NCBI GenBank assembly: GCA_043812875.1
Contig: JBDRLS010000115.1
Span: forward strand, 1-37,749
DNA: 37,749 nucleotides
Source: Nanobdellota archaeon
Lineage (GTDB): Archaea; Nanobdellota; Nanobdellia; Woesearchaeales; JAHIVG01
Direction: 5' to 3'
The notes under the pieces were generated by a model, which did not search any database, was not told where the DNA came from, and saw nothing but the letters and a program-made list of their open reading frames with translations. The translations under genes and the position numbers were made by a program. This document shows positions 397-27,331 of the stretch, in pieces. How positions within the stretch are numbered: position 1 is the stretch's first letter; every line of letters begins with the position of its first letter.

Positions 397-1011
397 ATGA
401 AAAACATCAAGGCCATCCTCTTTGACATGGACGGCGTTCTCATCGACACAGGCCCTTCTTGGTTCCATGTATTCAACCTGGCTCGCGTGCATTTCGGATT
501 CCCCGAAGTTGACCTCAAAGATTGGCAGGAGCGATGCTGGGGGCTCACCCTCCCTGCGATTAAGGACACCTTTTTTCCCGGCATAACTGAAGAGAGACTC
601 CTCAGCTCATTTGAATCCAAGATGCATCTTTACTTCAAGCACGCGCTGCCTATGCCCCATTCAGTGAATGTCATCAACCGCCTGAAGAAGAAGTTCAAGA
701 TTGCGGTCGTGACGAATGGCACAAAAAAGATGTCTGATCTGCTCCTTCCGAAACTTGGAATCACTTTCGACGCTGTGCTTACATCAGATGACGGTGCAGA
801 GAAACCCTCACCAGACCTGATTATCAAGGCCTGTGAACTCTTGCAGGTAGCTCCGAAAGATACTGTCATGATCGGTGACGTTCCCGTGGACATGGAGGCT
901 GCGAAGGCAGCTGGCTGCATAGGCATCGGTTTTGGTATTGACGGCGATTACAGAGTAGAAAGCTTTTTAGAGTTATTGAAACTATTAGGTGAACATCATG
1001 GACCCCTTTGA
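397..1011 (+). CDS. HAD-superfamily phosphatase/hydrolase
   Basis: DxDG motif FDMDGVLID at the N-terminus and a GDxxxD-type motif (MIGDVPVDMEAA) near the C-terminus. ATG 397 is preferred over the upstream in-frame extension; an AT-rich TATA-like stretch lies just upstream. Confidence 0.85.
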   Translation: MKNIKAILFDMDGVLIDTGPSWFHVFNLARVHFGFPEVDLKDWQERCWGLTLPAIKDTFFPGITEERLLSSFESKMHLYFKHALPMPHSVNVINRLKKKFKIAVVTNGTKKMSDLLLPKLGITFDAVLTSDDGAEKPSPDLIIKACELLQVAPKDTVMIGDVPVDMEAAKAAGCIGIGFGIDGDYRVESFLELLKLLGEHHGPL

Positions 1012-2747: not shown

Positions 2748-3368
2748 TCACCAGCTCAAGGTCACTTCAGCCCCTTTTGAAAGCGCTAGCTTATGTCTGA
2801 CATGTTCCGGAGCGATGAATTCAATGATCTCTTTGGCATGAGAGGTTCTCTCCGGAAAGATCAATGCTCCCCTGATATCCTCGAGCCATGCTGCTTTGCC
2901 ATATACCGGACCGAATGTCCTCCCATTTTTTGTAAATCCTTTAACTTCCTTCATGACCTGCCCGGCGAGGAATGCCCGGAGCTTGTCTGGATTAACCTTG
3001 ATGTTTAATGTCCCCAGATAAGGGATGAAGGAAAACGCTTCCGAGAGGGATTCCTTGTAGTGCCCCATATAATATTTCCCTTCCCCTAAGCCGGTTACGA
3101 TCCTGCCTTTGAGCGTGCTGTTTTTTAAAAATAGGGATGCAAGCTTCTCGAATTCCTCCCTGAGCCCAGCCATGCCTTTCTCAGTGAGTTTAGCGGTGAA
3201 GCCTGCCGGGCTGGTTGTGAGAGTGATCAAGCCGGCGCTCTTGAGATCACCTAGTATCCTCGAGGCGGATTGCTGGGACATATTCAGTTTCTTGGCGAGC
3301 AAGCCGGTAGTGGACTCATATTCCTTAGAAAGCCCCTTGCTGGCAAGCTCCTGGAGCATCGGTTGCAT
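2748..3368 (-). CDS. ribK: Winged-HTH domain fused to CTP-dependent riboflavin kinase (RbkR-like bifunctional regulator/kinase)
   Basis: The C-terminal half carries archaeal RibK motifs (GLGEGKYY, YLGTLNIKV, PERTSH). The N-terminal ~70 aa look like a wHTH (LAKKLNMSQQSASRILGDLKSAGLI). A TATA box sits 30 nt before the ATG. Confidence 0.85.
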   Translation of the reverse strand: MQPMLQELASKGLSKEYESTTGLLAKKLNMSQQSASRILGDLKSAGLITLTTSPAGFTAKLTEKGMAGLREEFEKLASLFLKNSTLKGRIVTGLGEGKYYMGHYKESLSEAFSFIPYLGTLNIKVNPDKLRAFLAGQVMKEVKGFTKNGRTFGPVYGKAAWLEDIRGALIFPERTSHAKEIIEFIAPEHVRHKLALSKGAEVTLSW

Positions 3369-5878: not shown

Positions 5879-6266
5879 ATTCTAATAATTCATGAGTTGA
5901 TAATACCTTCACTTCTTTCTGCTCCTTCAATCGTTTATCATTGCTCCAGATAGGGCACTGAAGCATAAGCGCGACGGCAAGATATTCTGCGTCATCTGGA
6001 TCGGGTGATATCCTAGTTGCTTCAGATAGAAATGCCTCGTGTTGGCTGGTGAAATGAATGCGAGAAATAATATCTGATGCGACATTCATGAACTCGAAAG
6101 GATCAAGTCCGGTCTTTTGTCTGATTTTCTCTTTATGACAATGGATTTCATCCAGGAGAAATTGAGGTGCAAAGAGTTGGAGATCTGAATCATATATGTA
6201 GTCGAGTGTTCTTCCCTGAGCGATCAGCGCAGCGATGAATATATTAGCGTCAATGACGAGCCTCAT
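5877..6266 (-). CDS. vapC: PIN-domain toxin (VapC-like)
   Basis: N-terminal MRLVIDANIFIAALI and later acidic residues typical of PIN. It overlaps the upstream small antitoxin-like gene by 17 nt. Confidence 0.8.
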   Translation of the reverse strand: MRLVIDANIFIAALIAQGRTLDYIYDSDLQLFAPQFLLDEIHCHKEKIRQKTGLDPFEFMNVASDIISRIHFTSQHEAFLSEATRISPDPDDAEYLAVALMLQCPIWSNDKRLKEQKEVKVLSTHELLE

Positions 6267-6483
6267 TAAGTCGTCTTTTATGCATCGCTTTATTTATCTT
6301 CCTTCCGATTTCCAAAGAATCCTTCTCGGTGAGCTTAGATTTTTCAACAATTTTCTTTAGGATTTTTAAATGCTCGATCTTTTCACGGATAGCTACTCTT
6401 GCAACCTCTGACCAATTTATCTCTCTGGATGATTCCATCTCTCTTTTAAGGTCATCAGGTACGCTGAGTGTTATTGTTGGCAT
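6250..6483 (-). CDS. vapB: Antitoxin-like small DNA-binding protein (VapB-like, ribbon-helix-helix-type N-terminus)
   Basis: 77 aa, reading ITLSVPDDLKREMES..NWSEVARVAIREKI. It is translationally overlapped with the PIN gene. ATG 6483 is preferred; the ORF opens with GTG at 6492. Confidence 0.7.
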   Translation of the reverse strand: MPTITLSVPDDLKREMESSREINWSEVARVAIREKIEHLKILKKIVEKSKLTEKDSLEIGRKINKAMHKRRLNEARH

Positions 6484-6618: not shown

Positions 6619-7215
6619 ATGAGGTGGCTGCTCTTATCAACAATCCTATTCTTCACAGCTTGCACCATAACCGGCAACGTCGTCAACGAACCAGTTCCTT
6701 TCTATTGCCACGAGTCTGATCCTGGCAAGGACTTCATGACCTATGGTGAGACTTGCTTTGGCGCCGACTGCAAGCAAGATTACTGCGAAGGCCGTGCTAT
6801 CGTCGAGCATTACTGCAAGGACAACACTATCCAAGAAGGCCATTTCACCTGTCCAGGTGCGTGCGAACACGGGCAGTGCACTGACAAGCGCTACGATACC
6901 GGCGCCTATGACCTCCATTGGCAGCCTCAGATGCCGCGGCCAGGAGAACAAGTCAGCATCTATTATGTCGTCAAGAACACTGGTAATATCGACCAGGTGG
7001 CGTCGTGGAGCGAGATCTGCATCACCGGCATGGGATGCATCAAGGAATCTGTCCCCAGGCTCGATCCAAACGAAGAGCATACCCACCTCAGGAGGATCAC
7101 ATTCCATACTTCTGGTGATTATGATGTCTGGTTCCGCACTGATATCAATGATGTCATCCCCGAGATTGATGAGACGAACAATGAGCGGAAGGACACGATC
7201 TTAGTCCGAAGGTAA
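6619..7215 (+). CDS. Secreted Cys-rich module + CARDB-like domain protein (smaller paralog of the N-terminal part of 3950-5857)
   Basis: Signal/lipobox-like FFTAC. Cys-rich module CHESDPG...CPGACEHGQC. CARDB-like end IPEIDETNNE. Confidence 0.8.
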   Translation: MRWLLLSTILFFTACTITGNVVNEPVPFYCHESDPGKDFMTYGETCFGADCKQDYCEGRAIVEHYCKDNTIQEGHFTCPGACEHGQCTDKRYDTGAYDLHWQPQMPRPGEQVSIYYVVKNTGNIDQVASWSEICITGMGCIKESVPRLDPNEEHTHLRRITFHTSGDYDVWFRTDINDVIPEIDETNNERKDTILVRR

Positions 7216-7265
7216 CCTCATAATCAGGATATCATTTGAATTTCTCTGTTTTTCTTCGTTATTCC

Positions 7266-7280
7266 AAAAGATTTAAATAC
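7266..7280 (+). promoter_or_regulatory. BRE/TATA promoter of the grpE operon (AAAAGATTTAAATAC)
   Basis: The first T of TTTAAATA is at 7272. The window's usual spacing predicts a transcription start near 7303, giving a leader of about 46 nt that contains the palindrome. Confidence 0.5.
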
Positions 7281-7307
7281 AACCTATGACTAAGTAAGAT
7301 AGATTTG

Positions 7308-7324
7308 GTTGACTTAAGGTCAAC
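7308..7324. promoter_or_regulatory. Operator-like palindrome GTTGAC-TTAAG-GTCAAC in the grpE leader
   Basis: Perfect 6-bp inverted arms with a 5-bp spacer, just downstream of the predicted transcription start. Same architecture as 3806-3822. Confidence 0.55.
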
Positions 7325-7348
7325 AACAGCATGACAACGTGAACTGCA

Positions 7349-7864
7349 ATGAAAAACAAACACACACCCCAAAAAGCGCTTGAAGAAGCGAAAAAAGAGC
7401 TAAGCCTGCTTGAATCTGCAAAAGACGAGATGAAAGATACCTTACAACGCGTCCAGGCAGAGTTCGAGAACTACAAGAAACGTATTGAAAAGGAATCAGC
7501 CCAGCGATGCCTTTGCGTAAAGGCGTCATTCCTGAAGGAACTCCTCCCGATTGTCGACAGTTTCGAGAAAGCATTGGAGCATCCGACAGAAGGAGAGGAT
7601 TTCATCAAAGGAATGGTTCTTATCCAAGACCAGCTTTTATCCATGCTCAAGAAAGAGGGTATCCATCCGATAGATACAGGAGGCAAGCATTTTGATCCCC
7701 ACCTCCACGAGGCCATGACGCACGGCGAAGGGGAGGACGGCATCATCCTGGAAGAACTGCAGAAGGGATACACGATGCATGATATAATCATCCGTCACAG
7801 CAAGGTCAAGGTAGGCAAACATGACACTGATAAAAAAGACCACCAAGACGAAAACCATCATTGA
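7349..7864 (+). CDS. grpE: Nucleotide exchange factor GrpE
   Basis: Coiled-coil N-terminal half (RVQAEFENYKKR) and a C-terminal FDPHLHEAM motif. First gene of the dnaK locus. Confidence 0.9.
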   Translation: MKNKHTPQKALEEAKKELSLLESAKDEMKDTLQRVQAEFENYKKRIEKESAQRCLCVKASFLKELLPIVDSFEKALEHPTEGEDFIKGMVLIQDQLLSMLKKEGIHPIDTGGKHFDPHLHEAMTHGEGEDGIILEELQKGYTMHDIIIRHSKVKVGKHDTDKKDHQDENHH

Positions 7865-8351
7865 GCTCGGCAAAGGCTGCGGAGCACTATGCCATTGGAG
7901 CGGGCACTGCTGCAAGCACACTTCAGCTATCCTCGTCGGAAACGAAAAGAAAGAGCTCGCCGAGGACATGGGCCTGTCTGAAAAGGAATTCGAGAAGCGA
8001 TACCTTGAAGACACGACGCGCTTCAACACAAAACTCAAGCAGTTCAAGCAGAGAAGAGAGAAAGGCAGGCCCCATGGTCCCTGCATCATGCTTACGGAGA
8101 CAAATCGGTGCAGGATCCATGATATCAAGCCATTGTATTGCAGGACAGGGAACTGTCGAAATGAGCATGGCGAGGCCATTGCCGTATGGTTTGCGCTCAA
8201 CCATTTTGTCAACACGAATGATGCAGAGTCCATGAGGCAATGGGCAGCTTACCTTAGGACACACCCGACCATCCAGGGAGGGAAGCTGGAAGAGCTCATT
8301 CCAGACAAGAAGCATCTCTCAAGGATCCTCACCCATGAACTGTTATATTGA
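7821..8351 (+). CDS. YkgJ-family Cys-cluster (putative Zn/Fe-chelating) protein
   Basis: Cys cluster CGALCHWSGHCC followed by GPCIMLTETNRCRIHDIKPLYCRTGNC, matching the CxxCxxCC-family pattern. Overlaps the grpE 3' end by 44 nt. Confidence 0.7.
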   Translation: MTLIKKTTKTKTIIELGKGCGALCHWSGHCCKHTSAILVGNEKKELAEDMGLSEKEFEKRYLEDTTRFNTKLKQFKQRREKGRPHGPCIMLTETNRCRIHDIKPLYCRTGNCRNEHGEAIAVWFALNHFVNTNDAESMRQWAAYLRTHPTIQGGKLEELIPDKKHLSRILTHELLY

Positions 8352-8679: not shown

Positions 8680-10563
8680 ATGGGAAAAATAATCGGCATT
8701 GATTTAGGGACAAGCAATTCAGCAGCAGCATTCTTAGAGGCCGGAAGGCCGAAAATAATTCCTTCCGCAGAAGGCGCATCCCAGTACGGCAAGGCCTTCC
8801 CCAGCTTCGTCGCATTCACCAAGGACGGTGATCTCCTCGTCGGAGAGCCTGCAAAGAGGCAGATGGTCTCTAATCCAGAACGCACCGTTCTCGCTGCAAA
8901 ACGCAAGATGGGGACGACACACAAATACAAGATCAACGGCAAGGAGTATACCCCTCAGCAGATCTCGGCATTCATCCTGCAGAAGATCAAGAAGGATGCA
9001 GAAGAATTCCTCGGCGAGAAGGTCGAGAAAGCGGTCATCACTGTCCCTGCCTATTTTGATGACAACCAGCGGCAGGCAACAAAGGATGCAGGCGCCATTG
9101 CAGGATTGGAGGTCGTGAGGATCGTCAATGAGCCGACGGCCGCGTCATTGGCCTATGGCATCGACAAGAAAAAGGAAAGCAAGATCCTTGTCTTCGACTT
9201 CGGCGGCGGGACATTGGACGTCACCATAATGGAATTCGGGGACGGCGTCTTTGAAGTCAAGTCGACCTCTGGAGACACACAGCTCGGCGGGACCGACATG
9301 GATGAAAAGATCATGGGGTTCTTGGTCAAGGAATTCAAGAAGCAGGAAGGCATTGACATAAGCAAGGACAGCATGGCTACCCAGCGCCTCAGGGAAGCGG
9401 CAGAAAAGGCCAAGATAGAGCTTTCCACCACACTGGAGACAGACATCAATCTGCCGTTCATCAGCGCCACGGACGCCGGTCCGAAGCATCTGTCCATAAA
9501 GCTGCGGAGAGCCCAGCTCGAGGAATTGGTCATGCCCCTCATCGAGAAATGCAGGAACCCTGTTGAGCAGGCATTGAAGGATGCGAAGCTCACCAAGGAT
9601 GATATAGACAAGGTCATCATGGTCGGCGGTCCGACGAGGATGCCTATTGTCCAGAAGTTTGTCGAAGACATGGTCGGGAAGAAGCTAGAGCGCGGCGTCG
9701 ATCCTATGGAATGCGTCGCCATGGGCGCTGCGATCCAAGCGGGTGTCCTCGCCGGCGATGTGAAAGATGTCCTTCTCTTGGACGTGACTCCTCTTTCATT
9801 AGGCATCGAAACCCTTGGAGGCGTCTTCACCAAGCTCATCGAGCGAAACACGACAATCCCGACGAAGAAGAGCCAGATCTTCTCGACAGCAGCCGATAAT
9901 CAGCCAGCGGTGACCATCAATGTGCTCCAAGGGGAACGTTCGATGGCTTCAGACAATAAGAATCTTGGACGGTTTGATCTGGTGGGCATCCCTCCTTCAC
10001 CAAGGGGAATCCCCCAGATTGAGGTCACCTTTGACATCGATGCCAATGGCATAGTCCATGTCCACGCAAAGGACCTGGGGACGGGGAAAGAGCAATCGAT
10101 CCAGATCACTGCAACCCAGAAACTCAATGATGAAGAGATTGAGAAGATGAAAAAGGATGCTGAAGCCCATGCCTCCGACGACAGGAAGAAGAAAGAGGAA
10201 GCTGAAACCATAAACAATGCGGAAACCTTGGTATACACGACCGAAAAGCTCTTCAAGGACATGGGAGATAAAATGCCAAAAGAACAGGTCGAGCCTGTCC
10301 AGAAAGAGATTGATGAGCTGAAAGGACTCCTTAAGCCAGAGAAGAAGGACTCCGCGGCGATCAGGGCAAAACTTGATGCGATCAACGAGAAGGTGCAGAA
10401 GATAAGCACCGAGCTCTACCAAAAGGCCGCACAAGAGCAGGCAGCCAAACAGGCTGAGGAAGCTAAGAAAGCCGGGAAGAAGGACGGCAAGAAAGAGAAG
10501 GTTGTCGACGCTGATTATAAAGAGACGGATGATAAGGCCGATGACAAGGAAACCAAGAAATGA
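8680..10563 (+). CDS. dnaK: Hsp70 chaperone DnaK
   Basis: Hsp70 motifs [19 protein letters not shown] and [14 protein letters not shown] lies 4 nt before ATG 8680. Confidence 0.95.
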
Positions 10564-18369: not shown

Positions 18370-19308
18370 ATGCATCTCTTATCATTAGCCGATTGGAAAT
18401 CTGAACAGATCCTGGACATCATCGATGATTCGCTCGAGATCAAGAAGCATCCGGACAAGTACAAGGACTCGATGAAGGACAAGACCTTGCTCATGATCTT
18501 TGAGAAACCAAGTCTTAGGACGAGACTGAGTTTTGAAGCAGGCATGACCCAGATGGGCGGCCATGGAATCTTTTACAGTGTCAAGGATTCGCCGCTCGGC
18601 AAGAAGGAGACCATGCATGACACAGCGAAGACCGCATCAAGATATGTTGACATCATCATGGCACGGCTGAACAAATACAAGGACACCGAAGAGCTTGCCA
18701 TGCACAGCGACGTGCCGGTTATCGACGCGTTGAGTGATGAAGCGCATCCCTGCCAGATCATTGCTGATCTGCAGACGATAAAAGAAAAAAAGGGCAAGCT
18801 TAAAGGCCTCAAGCTTTGCTATCTTGGTGATGCCAACAACAATGTCACCTATTCCATGATGCATGGCACTGCGCTCATGGGCATGGACATGACCATCGGC
18901 TGTCCAAATCATAAAAACCTCATGCCCGACTCCCGATTCATCGAAGAAGCCAAGAAGATTGCAGAGAAAACAGGTGCCTCGCTCACAATATACCATGATG
19001 CGAAGGAAGCGATCACCGACGCTGATGTTGTGTACACAGACTCGTGGATGTCATACCACATATCCTCTGATGAGGAGGCTGAGCGCAAGAGGTTGCTCCT
19101 GCCGTTCCAAGTCGATGGCGCCCTCATGAAGCATGCGCATCCTGAGGCGATCTTCATGAACTGCCTCCCGGCAATAAGGGGATATGAGCAGACCGCGGAA
19201 GTGATCGACGGCCCTCAGAGCGTCGTCTTCGACCAAGCCGAGAACAGATTACACGCTCAGAAAGCGATTATGTTGTATTTATTGAAACATAAATCAGCGA
19301 ATCCGTGA
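18370..19308 (+). CDS. argF: Ornithine-carbamoyltransferase-family transcarbamylase (divergent active-site motifs)
   Basis: FEKPSLRTRLSFE, HPCQ and VVFDQAENRLHAQKAIM match the OTC/ATC fold. However STRTR is SLRTR here, DxxxSMG is DSWMSYH, and HCLP is NCLP. Confidence 0.8.
   Translation: MHLLSLADWKSEQILDIIDDSLEIKKHPDKYKDSMKDKTLLMIFEKPSLRTRLSFEAGMTQMGGHGIFYSVKDSPLGKKETMHDTAKTASRYVDIIMARLNKYKDTEELAMHSDVPVIDALSDEAHPCQIIADLQTIKEKKGKLKGLKLCYLGDANNNVTYSMMHGTALMGMDMTIGCPNHKNLMPDSRFIEEAKKIAEKTGASLTIYHDAKEAITDADVVYTDSWMSYHISSDEEAERKRLLLPFQVDGALMKHAHPEAIFMNCLPAIRGYEQTAEVIDGPQSVVFDQAENRLHAQKAIMLYLLKHKSANP
19255..19286 (+). repeat. 32-nt perfect direct repeat, copy 1 (within the last codons of argF)
   Basis: gctcagaaagcgattatgttgtatttattgaa is identical to 19381-19412. 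Confidence 0.95.
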
Positions 19309-19380
19309 CCATCAATTTACGTGTGGGTCACGGCGTTGGACTGTAAGTCCCACCTTCCCGCTCGAGCCTGAAAAGGGTCG

Positions 19381-19412
19381 GCTCAGAAAGCGATTATGTT
19401 GTATTTATTGAA
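19381..19412 (+). repeat. 32-nt perfect direct repeat, copy 2 (preserves an alternative argF C-terminus AQKAIMLYLLKNK-stop)
   Basis: Identical to 19255-19286. It is followed in the equivalent frame by aag aac aaa tga. Confidence 0.95.
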
Positions 19413-19467
19413 GAACAAATGACCAACGTTACCTAGTGGAAAGATACAACTTAGTGAGGAGACTGTC

Positions 19468-22944: not shown

Positions 22945-22958
22945 AAGCTTTATAAATA
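22945..22958 (+). promoter_or_regulatory. BRE/TATA promoter of the initiator tRNA (AAGCTTTATAAATA)
   Basis: The first T of TTTATA (22949) is 33 nt before tRNA position 1 (22982). Confidence 0.6.
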
Positions 22959-22981
22959 AAACGATGTTCTTGCTATTCAAT

Positions 22982-23115
22982 AGCGGGGTAGGGCAGCCAG
23001 GAGACACCAAAAAGTGCCTAAATGCCCGGAGGGCTCATAAACTCGTTGCGCTGTTAACCTCAGGCGCAAAGTCCGAGGAACCCTCAGGTCGGAGGTTCAA
23101 ATCCTCTCCCCGCTA
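22982..23115 (+). tRNA. Initiator tRNA-Met(CAU) with a canonical 37/38 intron (~40 nt) and an extra ~18-20 nt inside the D loop
   Basis: Acceptor AGCGGGG/CCCCGCT gives an A1:U72 pair, with discriminator A. Anticodon stem GAGGG/CCCTC has three G-C pairs next to the loop CTCATA|A. The T arm GGAGG-TTCAAAT-CCTCT is intact. D stem GGGC (22991-94)/GCCC (23024-27) encloses 29 nt. A T8 run follows. Confidence 0.8.
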
Positions 23116-23144
23116 TTTTTTTTACCACTGGACATTCTCACGTG

Positions 23145-23158
23145 AGCTTTATAAAAAA
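23145..23158 (+). promoter_or_regulatory. BRE/TATA promoter of the LAGLIDADG-like ORF (AGCTTTATAAAAAA)
   Basis: The first T of TTTATA (23148) is 32 nt before ATG 23180. Confidence 0.55.
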
Positions 23159-23179
23159 GAATAGAGCACATTAGCCACA

Positions 23180-23737
23180 ATGACTCTACCAAAAATAAAT
23201 ATCAAAGAACTGATTAAAGGAAACAAAACTTATCCAACGTGGTCTACTGGTTCTTGTCACCAGTTATACGCTACCAATGAAAAACAAAATACGATAAAAA
23301 TATTCTACACTACAAAATCAAAACGTATAATATCCCGTGTATTTCCAAAAAAGTTAACTTTATCTCCTGAATTTTGCTATGTATTGGGCTTTCTCAAGGG
23401 AGAAGGATCGAACTCACTCGGAAAATCAAATTACCGAAGATTCACTATAACAAAGTCTGATCCAGATATAATGAAATTTGTTCTTAAAATTCTTGAGAAA
23501 AATAAACTTCTATCTCTATCAAGATTAATAAATAAATCCTGTCATTTAATTCATTTCAAATTGACAGAAAAAAAAGTAATAGAATATTGGTCTGAGAAAT
23601 TAAAGTTGCCTGAAGAAAAATTTAAATGCTTTGAGGATAAGAATAAGACATCGCTTTTTGGAGTCTGTCATATTTATATCAGTGATGTTCTTTTAAGAAG
23701 AGTTGTGGATCTTATTCAAGAGAAAATCATGAGTTGA
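23180..23737 (+). CDS. Single-motif LAGLIDADG-like homing-endonuclease-family protein
   Basis: SPEFCYVLGFLKGEGSNS resembles the LAGLIDADG motif context (compare I-CreI EFLLYLAGFVDGDGS). The 185-aa size fits homodimeric members. The DNA is strongly AT-rich relative to the flanks. Confidence 0.55.
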   Translation: MTLPKINIKELIKGNKTYPTWSTGSCHQLYATNEKQNTIKIFYTTKSKRIISRVFPKKLTLSPEFCYVLGFLKGEGSNSLGKSNYRRFTITKSDPDIMKFVLKILEKNKLLSLSRLINKSCHLIHFKLTEKKVIEYWSEKLKLPEEKFKCFEDKNKTSLFGVCHIYISDVLLRRVVDLIQEKIMS

Positions 23738-23744
23738 TTTACCT

Positions 23745-23772
23745 TCTCCCCGCTATCTTCCCAATTTTTTCT
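23745..23772 (+). repeat. Direct repeat: last 11 nt of the initiator tRNA plus 17 nt of flank (tctccccgctatcttcccaattttttct)
   Basis: 28/28 identical to 26025-26052. It overlaps the last codons of the minus-strand antiporter gene. Confidence 0.9.
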
Positions 23773-25489
23773 TCCCTTTCACTCTCTTCTGCAGCGCCAA
23801 TAAATGTTTCCGTGGAATACCTCTGATCATGGAAAAGCCGCGAAAGAGCTGAATTGCCATCAATCCTAAAAAGAGCAATTCAAGATAGTTAAATGCGGGA
23901 TCAAGATTAGAGAGCAGCACAAAATTGGGCAGCATGACCGCAAAAACATAGAGGAGGATCGCCTGCCCGAAGGTTTTTAGAATGCCCTTCTCCTGGTCAA
24001 GGTCATAAGGAAGGAAGATGCGGATGAAGCTGCGAAAATGAGCAATGAAGTTCCTGAATGCCCGCACGATATCAAAGCCGATGAAGGCCAGGATGACAAG
24101 TATGAGCATGGCCAAAGTCAACAGTGTCTTCGGTTGGCGCAAAAAGAGCTGCTGCTCAGGAGATAACCACAGCCAGATATACCCTGCGAGGGCGATGAGT
24201 GCCAGAAATCCACCGACCCCGCGAAAGAAGCGTCGCAGATCATTCTTCAAGGTCAATGTCTGCTTTCGTGAATATTCGAGATTGTCATGGATGACACACA
24301 TGTATCTTGACCCTAACCTGATCGGCTTGAGCATCCAATCAGGCATGCATCCCATGCAAAAATTTCCAAAGGCTTCATAGCGCGTGACCGCGAGAGGAGT
24401 GATCAAGGTGGAGAGGAAGATCACTGCAGCCACCATGCTCACCAAGTCAAATCCTGGATTGAGAGGATCTGCAATGGCGACGACGAGCAGCGAAAACTCC
24501 CCTATCGGGACCATGGCCAAGCCGGCGAACGCCGCCTGCTTCCCGGATAAGCCTCCGAAGAGATATCCGCCTGTGCTGATGGCAAAGCTCTTGGCAATGA
24601 CTGTGAACACAAAGAATGCCAGGATGATCGGCCACATGGTGATAACCGTGTTGAAGTCGACGAGCGTCCCAAGGGAAAAGAAGAACAACGACGAAAACGT
24701 CAAGACGAAAGGATGGATGGCATGTTCAATGCTTTTTGCTGCAGGAAGCGATGCGATCAGCGTACCTGCAAGAAAGGCGCCTACAGATGAGGATATACCA
24801 AGTACTGTCGCCAGATAGCTCATTCCGACTAGCAATCCCAATCCGAGAAACATTGAAGTCTCTTCTGAACTGTAGGCTAAGATCCAATTGATGGCCCATC
24901 GCAGAACACGTTTCAGCACCACATAGGTGATGATCAGCACCAGGAATGCTGCAAGCAAGGGAGAGAGCAGATCACCGGGCGTTCCTTGCACACTGGAAAA
25001 ATAGGTAAGAGCGAACACGCCGAAGATATCCTCGATGATGAGCACCGCGATCAAAAGCTGAACCTCATTACGATCGACGAGCCCTTTAGCCTTTAGGATC
25101 CGGATCATGATGACCGTGCTTGAGATCGCTAGAGCAACGCCGAGAGCAAGAGACGAGATCACGTCAAAGCCCAGCAAGAGCGCAAGATAATAGCCGGCAA
25201 ACACCACTAAACCAAGCTTGAAGATGGCCATCATCAATGCTTTCCCGCCCAAATTCAGTAATTTCTGGATATTGAACTCGATGCCGATGGCGAATAAGAG
25301 CAGGATTGCCCCGATCTCAATGGCCAGGTGGATCAACTCACCGTCGCTGATGTAGCTGAGCGCATTCGGACCGACGATGGCTCCGATGAGCAGTAATCCG
25401 ATTGCCGTGGGTTGTCTGAATCGGGTTGCGAGGAGCCCTCCGAGTAGGGAGAATCCGAAAATCAGACCGATCTCGACCCCGGCGACCAT
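23753..25489 (-). CDS. Cation:proton antiporter (CPA2/Kef-type Na+/K+:H+ exchanger) with extra C-terminal TM helices
   Basis: 578 aa and polytopic. The N-terminus EIGLIFGFSLLGGLLATRFRQPTAIGLLLIGAIVGPNAL is typical of CPA transporters. GCTTTTTATATCC lies about 27 nt before the ATG. Confidence 0.85.
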   Translation of the reverse strand: MVAGVEIGLIFGFSLLGGLLATRFRQPTAIGLLLIGAIVGPNALSYISDGELIHLAIEIGAILLLFAIGIEFNIQKLLNLGGKALMMAIFKLGLVVFAGYYLALLLGFDVISSLALGVALAISSTVIMIRILKAKGLVDRNEVQLLIAVLIIEDIFGVFALTYFSSVQGTPGDLLSPLLAAFLVLIITYVVLKRVLRWAINWILAYSSEETSMFLGLGLLVGMSYLATVLGISSSVGAFLAGTLIASLPAAKSIEHAIHPFVLTFSSLFFFSLGTLVDFNTVITMWPIILAFFVFTVIAKSFAISTGGYLFGGLSGKQAAFAGLAMVPIGEFSLLVVAIADPLNPGFDLVSMVAAVIFLSTLITPLAVTRYEAFGNFCMGCMPDWMLKPIRLGSRYMCVIHDNLEYSRKQTLTLKNDLRRFFRGVGGFLALIALAGYIWLWLSPEQQLFLRQPKTLLTLAMLILVILAFIGFDIVRAFRNFIAHFRSFIRIFLPYDLDQEKGILKTFGQAILLYVFAVMLPNFVLLSNLDPAFNYLELLFLGLMAIQLFRGFSMIRGIPRKHLLALQKRVKGKKKLGR

Positions 25490-25551
25490 GGCTCAATTGT
25501 CTTTTGAGGATATAAAAAGCTTCCGTTCTACTCCCAGACCCTGACAATCCC

Positions 25552-25575
25552 CTTCCCAATTTTTCTCTAAAAATT
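25552..25575 (+). repeat. Direct repeat cttcccaatttttctctaaaaatt
   Basis: Matches 26037-26061 apart from one T of the T run. Its first 15-16 nt also match 23757-23772. Confidence 0.85.
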
Positions 25576-25604
25576 TATAAACCAGCATTCATTCCCCCTT
25601 TCAT

Positions 25605-25961
25605 ATGGTAGCAGATCATGGACCTCCTTGGTATCGAATTGTATCTGTCAGACCGGACAGAAATTGGCAAGGAGAAGGAAGCCGAGGATATATGAACCAG
25701 GTTTGGCACCGATCCTCTACACCAGGAAATGACACTTCTGATTTTAATATCTCTATGATCGGTGGAGAGCCAATTGGACAGGAAATTTATCTTTTTCATG
25801 TTGACCAGAAAGAACTTGGCGATAGAAATATAAACGATCTTCTCGGCTTGCGTGTAACGGTTAGTGGAAGATCTGGCGAGAGGAGATTACTCCCAGCAGA
25901 TGGAAGTAGTCCCATCCCCTATACTAAGTACTTACAAGCTTCAGTTCAAGAGATGGAATGA
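25605..25961 (+). CDS. Hypothetical protein (118 aa) in the third cassette
   Basis: AAATTTATAAACC has its first T (25574) 31 nt before ATG 25605. No motif recognised. Confidence 0.5.
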   Translation: MVADHGPPWYRIVSVRPDRNWQGEGSRGYMNQVWHRSSTPGNDTSDFNISMIGGEPIGQEIYLFHVDQKELGDRNINDLLGLRVTVSGRSGERRLLPADGSSPIPYTKYLQASVQEME

Positions 25962-26017
25962 ACGCGATAGTTCCTTCTGTCTTGAGGCCGTCTCGAACCT
26001 ACGGGAATCCTAGAAAG

Positions 26018-26061
26018 CAAATCCTCTCCCCGCTATCTTCCCAATTTTTTCTCTAAAAATT
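26018..26061 (+). repeat. Partial initiator-tRNA 3' end (18 nt) plus flank; reads like an unoccupied copy of the insertion site
   Basis: caaatcctctccccgcta matches 23098-23115. The next 17 nt match 23756-23772, and the last 25 nt match 25552-25575. Confidence 0.9.
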
Positions 26062-26065
26062 GTAC

Positions 26066-26290
26066 ATGTTTTCGTCATTCTCCGAAGTAGGTATAGGACA
26101 TCCTGAAAAATTAGTTGATAAAGGAACAAGAAACGAACAAAAATTAAGAAGAGATAATGGCGAATTTAGACCATTAAATCAACTTCAAGTTTTTACAGAT
26201 GCAGGTCCGATTTCATTTCATTATGAAAGCGCCAAGAACTTAGGATTGCCGGATGCACTCTACACAGACAGTCAATCTTGGCAAATTTAA
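26066..26290 (+). CDS. Hypothetical small ORF (doubtful)
   Basis: Open frame only. The TATA box present in the sister repeat at 25571-25580 is disrupted here. Confidence 0.3.
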   Translation: MFSSFSEVGIGHPEKLVDKGTRNEQKLRRDNGEFRPLNQLQVFTDAGPISFHYESAKNLGLPDALYTDSQSWQI

Positions 26291-26317
26291 GAGTTTAACA
26301 CAAATATTCTGCATTCT

Positions 26318-27331
26318 TTACCACACCCCGGCAATCATCTCCCCGCACGAACAGCAACCCTCCTTTAGATGATTCTCCACAACAAGAAACCCATGCCGTT
26401 TTATCAGCAATGCATTGCATTCCGGACAATGGGTGTTCTCCTTGTCACCAGCGCGAAGATTCCCTACATAGACATACCTCATCCCAACATCCTTGGCGAT
26501 CTTCCAGGCCCTATCCAAGAGTTCAGCAGAGGTGGATGGCAAATGATCCAGCTTATAGTCAGGGTGGAACGCAGAGAAGTGCAGCGGCACATCCGCGCCG
26601 GCATGCTCCTTCAGCCAAAGGCACATCTCCTCGATCTTGTCCAGATCATCGTTCAGCGTCGGGATGACAAGGTTTGTGACCTCAAGCAGGACATGTTTCT
26701 GCTTGGCCCAGAACTCAATCGAGGCTAAGACGTCTTTCAGGAAGGAAGCAGTGGTCGTCCCATAGAATTGTTGAGTGAATCCTTTTAAGTCGACATTGAT
26801 ACCATCCAAGTGAGGCGCCAATTCCTTTGCAGGCCCTAAACAAGTGAAGCCGTTGCTCACCATGACCGTCCTGATTCCCGCTGCCTTCGCCAGTTTGAAG
26901 ATGTCCAAGCAATACTCGAAGAAGATCGTCGGCTCATTGTACGTCGCTGCGATGCTCTCGCAGCCATGCTCTTTCGCCAATTGTATCATCTGCTCAGGAC
27001 TGACTTCCTCCTCAGGATACTCGCCAGGCTTCGTCTGTGAAGTATGCCAATTCTGGCAATGTTTGCAGCGAAGATTGCAGCCAACAGTTCCAAAGCTGAG
27101 TACCTTGCTCCCCGGCAGAAAGTGAAACAAGGGCTTCTTCTCGATGGGATCGATCTGCAATCCGGTCAATTTCCCATACACGAGAGTATATAGCTTCCCC
27201 ACGACATTCTTGCGCACATTGCAGAAGCCGATCTTCCCATCTTGGATCTGGCAGTAGCGCGGGCAGAGTGTGCACCTGACAGTGTTTTCTTTCCCTTGAT
27301 AGTCCTGTTCGTAATATTTCGCCTTGATCAT
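26318..27331 (-). CDS. AmmeMemoRadiSam-system-type radical SAM enzyme (PflA/PflX-like activase family)
   Basis: CNLRCKHCQNW (CxxxCxxC) preceded by the family-typical N-terminal Cys cluster CTLCPRYCQI..GFCNVRKN. A TATA box lies about 28 nt before the ATG. Confidence 0.85.
   Translation of the reverse strand: MIKAKYYEQDYQGKENTVRCTLCPRYCQIQDGKIGFCNVRKNVVGKLYTLVYGKLTGLQIDPIEKKPLFHFLPGSKVLSFGTVGCNLRCKHCQNWHTSQTKPGEYPEEEVSPEQMIQLAKEHGCESIAATYNEPTIFFEYCLDIFKLAKAAGIRTVMVSNGFTCLGPAKELAPHLDGINVDLKGFTQQFYGTTTASFLKDVLASIEFWAKQKHVLLEVTNLVIPTLNDDLDKIEEMCLWLKEHAGADVPLHFSAFHPDYKLDHLPSTSAELLDRAWKIAKDVGMRYVYVGNLRAGDKENTHCPECNALLIKRHGFLVVENHLKEGCCSCGEMIAGVW

Follow-up and report, generated by a model that had tools for sequence, protein, structure and literature searches.

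Nested direct repeats and a family of one-gene cassettes at the 3' end of an archaeal initiator tRNA gene

In phage T4, one-sided homing proceeds by illegitimate repair of double-strand breaks at microhomologies (PMC2988022), and the free-standing endonuclease SegB, which is encoded beside tRNA genes, drives local segmental duplication (PMC13096335). Could comparable events shape a tRNA locus in an archaeon? We analysed a 37,749-bp contig of a short-read metagenome bin (JBDRLS010000115.1; the whole contig is referred to as the window), which is labelled Nanoarchaeota archaeon and comes from a Woesearchaeota-like member of the DPANN archaea. At 22982-26061, the gene for the initiator tRNA-Met (tRNA-iMet) is followed by three segments with one gene each: X1, which encodes a small protein of a conserved family; X2, which encodes a CPA2 Na+/H+ antiporter; and X3, which carries an orphan open reading frame (ORF). 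Pieces of the tRNA 3' end and its trailer recur at the boundaries of these segments. We propose that the 3' end of the tRNA-iMet gene is a hot spot for breakage and insertion, and that the nested repeats are the footprints of three successive events. To this reading we assign a probability of about 0.45. We know of hardly any mobile elements from DPANN or Woesearchaeota.

How does the locus compare with described systems? Like free-standing homing endonuclease genes (those of phage T4, including that of SegB; PMC2988022, PMC13096335), X1 is a single, selfish-looking gene with a promoter, linked to a conserved target in either orientation. It shares with them a foreign composition, irregular distal junctions and local duplications beside tRNA genes. 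Unlike them, it has no recognisable nuclease domain or fold, resides in a DPANN archaeon and not in a phage, and leaves a consistent footprint, an 11-13-nt duplication of the tRNA end, with the target gene intact in carriers. As in tRNA-targeting integrative elements (the 'suicidal' SSV type and those with tyrosine integrases of the pNOB8/pTN3/SNJ2 type), direct repeats of the tRNA 3' part bracket the insert and a displaced tail lies at its far end; further points of likeness are that one tRNA gene is used serially or in tandem and that genes are captured after decay (PMC8371274, PMC7253208). In contrast to these elements, the window contains neither an integrase nor fragments of one, its units are one-gene segments of 0.4-1.8 kb, its identity blocks have three different extents, and one 'cargo' gene is a native gene of the chromosome. 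In Caldiarchaeum, too, a short insert parts a tRNA fragment from an intact, intron-bearing gene, and population heterogeneity has been invoked; yet that insert encodes a recombinase and is present in six genome copies, whereas the window segments are single-copy and encode none (Sugahara et al. 2012, PMC3293823). Casposons and insertion sequence (IS) elements likewise insert at tRNA 3' ends with target duplications of 12-15 bp, but the window lacks Cas1, a transposase and terminal inverted repeats, and its right ends are not conserved. The locus resembles a homing-endonuclease-like or a tRNA-targeting insertion, and its interest lies mainly in the X1 family and the unmatched fold of its protein.

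Repeats behind the initiator tRNA gene

The locus reads tRNA[A] X1 [A'B] X2 [BC] X3 [ABC], where ABC is a 44-nt string composed of the tRNA 3' end and its trailer (Table 1). Piece A is CAAATCCTCTCCCCGCTA(T), piece B is (T)CTTCCCAATTTTTTCT and piece C is CTAAAAATT. Three repeat pairs had been read from the letters in the original prediction, and all of them were confirmed, two at full identity and the third with a one-T difference. J0, J1 and J2 are overlapping parts of a single master copy, J3, as serial insertion with target duplication would predict. Identity of J3 with the tRNA begins sharply in the T-loop, at about position 56; local alignment detects no similarity upstream of it. These repeats are not due to chance, since the observed counts of the 16-nt B string and the 11-nt tRNA-end string were reached in none of 100 dinucleotide shuffles. 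No further copy of either string is found elsewhere in the 37.7-kb window. One feature had been overlooked: the A'B repeat holds the last six codons and the stop codon of the antiporter gene, and this TAG is the antisense of the CTA at the tRNA end. Apart from the antiporter tail, the ORFs that overlap the repeats are frames of 30-49 aa. Each unit does carry its gene with a promoter of its own, as had been noted, although a TATA box 22-34 nt upstream of the start codon is seen at every ORF of the locus and is ordinary for this genome.

Table 1. Coordinates of the tRNA gene, repeats, segments and flanking genes in the window. Strand refers to the gene or feature named.
Feature	Position	Strand	Details
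tRNA TATA-box promoter	22946-22959	+	AGCTTTATAAATAA; read from sequence; ~30 nt upstream of tRNA start
Initiator tRNA-Met(CAT) gene	22982-23115	+	two introns: 23005-23023 (19 nt), 23040-23079 (40 nt); CCA not encoded
Repeat A (J0)	23098-23116	+	T-loop to tRNA 3' end plus one T; CAAATCCTCTCCCCGCTAT; 19/19 identical to 26018-26036
X1 segment	23117-23744	+	628 bp
X1 ORF, 185 aa	23180-23737	+	conserved family; 78 homologues
Repeat A'B (J1)	23745-23772	+	last 11 nt of tRNA plus 17 nt of trailer; TCTCCCCGCTATCTTCCCAATTTTTTCT; 28/28 identical to 26025-26052
X2 segment	23773-25551	antiporter on -	includes antiporter TATA box
CPA2 Na+/H+ antiporter, 578 aa	23753-25489	-	Pfam Na_H_Exchanger E=5e-53; TATA box 25510-25518
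Repeat BC (J2)	25552-25575	+	CTTCCCAATTTTT(T)CTCTAAAAATT; differs from 26037-26061 by one T in T-run
X3 segment	25576-26017	+	442 bp
X3 ORFan, 118 aa	25605-25961	+	TATA 25574-25581
Repeat ABC (J3)	26018-26061	+	18 nt of tRNA 3' end plus 26 nt of trailer
Right flank: 74-aa ORF	26066-26290	+	start of flank 26066-27331
Right flank: AmmeMemoRadiSam radical SAM gene	26318-27331	-	Pfam; synteny with L025, L057 and others

Could the repeats be produced by assembly, either by concatenation of strain variants of one locus or by a mis-join at short shared words? The bin derives from short reads, and repeats of 19-28 nt are near small k-mer sizes. However, the unique junctions X3|A or X1|A' are beyond an assembler's making, the large-scale gene order matches that of related loci (L025, L057 and others), and X1 and A' are combined in the same way in assemblies made independently from other samples (L032 and L057, L061). 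An artefact is therefore very unlikely.

The tRNA gene itself is easily missed. On the raw sequence, its two introns cause both ARAGORN and Rfam to overlook it. On the hand-spliced sequence ARAGORN calls a tRNA-Met(CAT), which has the features of an archaeal initiator tRNA-Met: a CAU anticodon, an A1:U72 pair, three G-C pairs that close the anticodon stem above its loop, and a cloverleaf. Orthologous initiator tRNA genes with introns are found in relatives. A near-identical copy of the tRNA TATA box lies at 23145-23158.

The X1 family and its footprints

The X1 protein has 78 homologues, exclusively from Woesearchaeota/Nanoarchaeota. Members are 180-200 aa long, and their alignment contains 21 invariant columns with the motifs GEG...YRR...GVCH.Y.SDVLLRR. 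Where sufficient flanking sequence is available, an intron-rich initiator tRNA gene is found no more than ~260 nt from X1 in more than 20 loci or lineages. Four arrangements occur: X1 downstream of the tRNA gene on the same strand, convergent and abutting the tRNA 3' end, upstream on the same strand, and divergent. Conserved in all of them is the promoter region, with a ACTGGACA motif and a short palindrome. In the window, the cassette comprises the T-run terminator of the tRNA, CACTGGACA (23126-23134), the palindrome CTCACGTGAG (23137-23146), a TATA box (23148-23155) and the ORF, and is flanked by TCTCCCCGCTAT at 23105-23116 and 23745-23756. At its left end it shows homology to the corresponding position in L025 and L057. 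GC content is 29.6% for the cassette versus 47% for the window; for X1 of L025 it is 0.36 versus 0.57 for the host.

In three lineages (the window, L057/L032 and L061) X1 is bracketed by a perfect repeat of the last 11-13 tRNA bases of its own genome. The duplicate in the window consists of 11 nt of tRNA and one T. That of L057/L032, CACTCCCCGCTATTTTTTT at 17-35 and 662-680, consists of 12 nt of tRNA and T7, and that of L061, CCACCCTCCGCTAT at 2234-2247 and 3099-3112, of 13 nt of tRNA and one T; 0 of 200 shuffles reached either of them. The duplicates covary with the T-stem and acceptor sequence of the genome in which they reside (window, TCTCCCCGCTA; L057, CACTCCCCGCTA; L061, CCACCCTCCGCTA). 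That each duplicate tracks the local T-stem and acceptor stem is accounted for by independent target duplications, but not by a single old repeat passed on by descent. The right ends of the three cassettes lie 7, 10 and 46 nt past the stop codon and have no sequence in common, which fits an illegitimate distal junction and not a transposon end. Terminal inverted repeats are absent from the ends of these three cassettes. All five boundaries of right copies fall between tRNA position ~56 and +3, the duplicated part of the tRNA being 18, 15, 13, 12 or 11 bases long, and so does the start of B. In loci of convergent orientation, no second copy of the tRNA end was found upstream of X1. The claim that the X1 unit is an insertion at the tRNA 3' end is thus borne out by duplicates of the respective tRNA in three independent lineages. 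There is good support for placing the X1 segment in a family of one-gene cassettes, not described before, whose insertion site is the initiator tRNA end. A conserved ancestral trailer, with B common to the window and L061, was considered and dismissed: the similarity is not significant and is reached by 186 of 500 shuffles.

Might selection maintain such repeats as functional signals in RNA or DNA, for instance as a terminator or processing site made of a tRNA-tail mimic and a T-run? T-runs serve as terminators in archaea. Each copy ends in or precedes a T-run, and in three lineages the A' copy is situated just past the X1 stop codon. A purely functional role is nevertheless extremely unlikely, since most X1 loci are devoid of the repeat. 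It lies between 7 and 46 nt past the stop codon, a terminator would have no functional reason to covary with the T-stem, and B and C are confined to the window genome.

Several observations touch on the surroundings of X1 in related loci. The (C)ACTGGACA motif, followed by a palindrome, is located just upstream of the X1 TATA box in the window (23126-23155), L025 (7949), L026 (6959 and 7054), L037 (~8000), L053 and L052; it may represent an operator or a recognition site. In L060 (~2330-2500) and L061 (~2350-2500) a conserved leader of ~90 nt (..acgcaaa.c.gctaaattgtaattttc...aatcacttatgcag..) separates the promoter from the X1 start, and may be a regulatory RNA element. L026 also encodes, at 7116-7903, a bona fide LAGLIDADG_3-type ORF of 214 aa, unrelated to X1, that ends exactly on the tRNA-iMet 3' end in opposite orientation. 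A second gene family therefore uses this site as well. The TAG stop codon of this ORF is the antisense of the terminal CTA of the tRNA, as is the antiporter stop in the A'B repeat of the window, and the ORF is preceded by the same ACTGGACA/palindrome combination. In L049 (~460-600, minus strand), 17 nt of the tRNA-iMet tail, ATCCTTTCCCCGCTATC, recur 115 nt downstream of the tRNA, and a diverged trailer copy comes after them; no gene separates the two copies, and the arrangement looks like a donor and a recipient allele in tandem.

Origin of the segments

Are all three segments foreign? The antiporter segment had been taken for an inserted cassette, and as stated this part of the original prediction finds no support. 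The antiporter is full length and has the C-terminal membrane extension typical of its family. Its best match among 5.8 billion proteins is the antiporter of the nearest relative, L025 (GCA_043806015.1), which is 43% identical to it along the whole protein; ~100 Woesearchaeal proteins rank next, at 37-43%. Its GC content of ~50% is typical of the genome. Gene order in L025 is tRNA-iMet, X1 homologue, HIT-like gene, antiporter (-), PEP carboxylase, PhoU, PHO4, radical SAM (-), DsbA (-) and RNase HII; in the window it is tRNA, X1, antiporter (-), X3, radical SAM (-), a 221-aa ORF, DsbA (-), RNase HII and SMC. L025 has no extra copies of its own tRNA tail. Given these homologues, the genome-typical composition and the order in L025 without repeats, the antiporter is a native, vertically inherited Woesearchaeal gene in roughly its ancestral place, not a foreign cassette. 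A relative with the same gene order and no repeats had been named beforehand as the observation that would turn insertion into local duplication, and for the antiporter L025 is such a relative. Truncation or recent transfer of the antiporter was rejected, as the protein has the length and the basic C-terminal tail usual in its family and no homologue exceeds 43% identity.

X3 has no homologues among 1.8 billion cluster representatives and no match in Pfam, PHROG or NCBIfam. A single match (P0200) hinted at a fragment of a large surface protein, but is a spurious hit to a 27-aa repeat motif. Nor is X3 a decayed copy of the tRNA or X1, or a duplicate of the right flank; local alignments to these were no better than those of shuffles.

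The gene order could, then, be ancestral, and slippage, template switching or local duplication in the course of replication or repair could have left the repeats as by-products, with no outside DNA involved. L025 has the same relative order and orientation of tRNA, X1, antiporter, radical SAM, DsbA and RNase HII without any repeats, the repeats are located exactly where gene content departs from L025, and elsewhere in the window 32-40 nt of the 3' end of the ornithine carbamoyltransferase (OTC) gene are duplicated around a 94-nt insert. Such an origin accounts neither for the local tRNA tail on either side of X1 in three lineages, each copy agreeing with its own tRNA, nor for the foreign composition of X1. 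Moreover, overlapping pieces of 24-28 nt would have to be pasted at two precise intergenic spots, which amounts to several coincidences, whereas derivation of J1/J2 from J3 needs one insertion. There is also no residual similarity beyond the sharp edges of the repeats. On balance, we consider purely local duplication unlikely.

Is a recombinase at work? No integrase, transposase or Cas1 domain was detected with Pfam in ~35 ORFs scanned across the window, and no ORF of 22982-26061 matches Phage_integrase or related Pfam, PHROG or NCBIfam families. An integrase, a split int(N)/int(C) fragment, a transposase or Cas1 is equally absent beside X1 in ~30 related loci. The claim that the locus has no recombinase thus stands as far as domain searches go, but the conserved protein of X1 may itself be the enzyme. 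Direct repeats identical to the tRNA 3' part are as expected of a tyrosine-recombinase element, which would also contain an integrase, and none is present. For a casposon, Cas1 and inverted repeats at the segment ends are lacking; duplications measure 12, 16 and 44 nt. For integron cassettes an integrase is lacking, each unit has its own TATA box, and direct copies of one site, in place of attC palindromes, form the boundaries. An IS element or DNA transposon is favoured solely by the near-fixed duplications of 11, 12 and 13 nt, and no transposase and no common sequence at the right ends of the three X1 cassettes accompany these.

Tandem site-specific integration by a tyrosine or other recombinase, acting in trans or since deleted, would turn the repeats into attL/attR remnants and the segments into residues of larger elements. 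Archaeal att sites are preferentially tRNA 3' ends, with identity blocks of usually 40-50 bp and down to 13-14 bp, and there are documented cases both of tandem integration and of capture after decay (PMC8371274, PMC7253208). The 18-nt A copy begins in the T-loop and ABC measures 44 nt, and in Caldiarchaeum a tRNA-Thr fragment was displaced by a 1.8-kb insert with a recombinase (PMC3293823). The failure to find any enzyme or enzyme fragment in the window or beside X1 in ~30 loci speaks against integration, as do the size of the segments (just 0.44-1.8 kb), the native antiporter, the differing extents of the three identity blocks, right ends of X1 that are not conserved, unlike an attP-proximal arm, and a duplication in L049 that encloses no element. 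Recombinase-mediated integration, too, seems to us an unlikely origin.

How, then, might a hot spot for breakage and insertion operate at the tRNA end? The tRNA gene would be cut at the border of T-loop and T-stem, at about positions 56-63. The left end of the break would invade a donor allele by way of the conserved tRNA homology, and DNA downstream of the donor's tRNA would be copied, whatever its content. The copy would then be joined without homology to the right end of the break, which still starts with a tRNA tail. The outcome would be an intact tRNA, new DNA, and then a partial tRNA tail with the old trailer. Such a sequence of break, copy and join would yield seamless left junctions, irregular right junctions, partial tRNA tails and the tandem of L049 with its diverged trailer. 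If events took place at the tRNA-attached copy, X3 would have come first (44 nt, ABC), X2 next (16 nt, B) and X1 last (12 nt, A'), and 26018-26061 would be the displaced original tRNA end with its trailer. The antiporter would be native DNA regained from a conspecific allele with the ancestral tRNA -> <- antiporter arrangement; loss followed by such regain would reconcile its ancestral position with the flanking B repeats. The prime suspect for the nuclease, as a candidate, would be the X1 protein. If so, the locus offers a testable route by which tiny archaeal genomes may gain, lose and regain genes beside a tRNA without an integrase.

Does X1 look like a nuclease? In the original prediction it had been called 'LAGLIDADG-like', a label that we could not substantiate. 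Its LGFLKGEGS aligns to the LAGLIDADG motif, with E=0.11 for Pfam LAGLIDADG_3 (below cut-off) and E=0.5 for PDB 3e54, and apart from marginal matches to LAGLIDADG_3 and phage-endonuclease families there is no significant Pfam, NCBIfam or PHROG assignment. AF2 predicts the structure with confidence (pLDDT 92, pTM 0.86; C-terminal domain model, pLDDT 88). Foldseek searches of the PDB with the full-length and C-terminal models returned no LAGLIDADG match; the top-scoring structures were an antibody (E=3e-3) and IspF (E=0.2). Judging from these models, X1 may have a new fold.

A number of points weigh against the break-and-insertion proposal. The confident X1 models resemble no nuclease or LAGLIDADG structure, with no fold match in BFVD either; only 3 of 35 X1 members show a weak match to LAGLIDADG_3, and hhalign against the LAGLIDADG_3 ORF of L026 gives a probability of 3.5%. 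A cut inside the tRNA would also strike alleles that already bear X1. The tRNA-tail duplicate is kept in only 3 of ~14 loci with the order tRNA->X1. Loss and regain must be assumed for the antiporter, because it has the same position in L025 without repeats, and the B and ABC events rest on one assembled contig. The collections searched contain neither an empty-site allele nor a close strain: the nearest relatives are ~55-65% identical at the amino-acid level, four proteins of the window have no identical entry, and with the exact 24-nt A'B string unmatched in the metagenome collection there is no such allele to compare.

A bolder version of the proposal is that X1 is a new site-specific DNA enzyme that moves its own 0.6-kb cassette into the T-stem/acceptor end of iMet genes in DPANN archaea, with the tRNA regenerated by the 11-13-bp duplication. 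Its cuts would make the locus a general site of gene capture, and introns at 60/61, present in some lineages, would confer immunity. We hold this to be possible but doubtful. Should X1 cassettes move autonomously, they would count as some of the smallest site-specific units of mobile DNA known from archaea, and as the first described for DPANN/Woesearchaeota, with a protein that has no relative in structure databases.

Neighbouring genes, tRNA introns and other duplications

Radical SAM, DsbA, RNase HII and SMC constitute a conserved backbone that begins at the right flank, and many lineages preserve the frame tRNA-iMet/X1 ... RNase HII - SMC. The interval from X1 to RNase HII measures 0-7.5 kb and contains different cargo in each lineage: nothing; Fic; a 109-aa ORF; an S8 peptidase with a carboxyltransferase and a radical SAM protein; or the set found in L025. 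Cargo of this variable island is often toxin- or defence-like. In L058, Fic lies between X1 and RNase HII, and a ParE-toxin pair is encoded at 222-690, just upstream of the tRNA-iMet/X1 pair. A scan of genome collections with the argininosuccinate lyase protein of the window gave only distant matches, to Clostridia and the like.

The iMet genes that adjoin X1 in relatives (L025-L061) have one to five introns and a length of 94-217 nt (for example, L034:758-974 and L053:~6238-6420). Introns are inserted in the D-loop, D-stem, anticodon loop, variable region and T-arm. An intron at ~60/61, where the tRNA-tail duplications begin, is present in L048, L053 and probably L057; this is a suggestive hint. 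The heavy intron load of the initiator tRNA may relate to attack on that gene. ARAGORN mis-calls or overlooks these multi-intron genes; that of L025 is called tRNA-Gly. Because such tRNAs are invisible to standard finders, tRNA-linked insertion sites in these genomes are being overlooked.

The 18-nt tRNA tail is also present in 18 viral contigs. These proved irrelevant, as they contain either bacterial tRNA-fMet genes, with encoded CCA and hairpin terminators, or an unrelated archaeal elongator tRNA-Met. In a viral contig (L012) the 3' half of a bacterial tRNA-fMet is found at 3140-3157 and again at 9734-9751, 6.6 kb apart; these are ordinary prophage att repeats, unrelated to the locus.

The OTC duplication lies at 19255-19420 of the window. 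The final 32 nt of the gene (40 nt at 93% identity) are duplicated there, and since neither the window nor any locus contains a further copy of the 94-nt insert (19287-19380), a repeated mobile element was rejected. The insert folds into a hairpin, and the distal copy retains an alternative C-terminus and stop codon (..LLKNK*). Its geometry, an insert with a duplicated gene 3' end, is that seen at the tRNA, but at a protein-coding gene.

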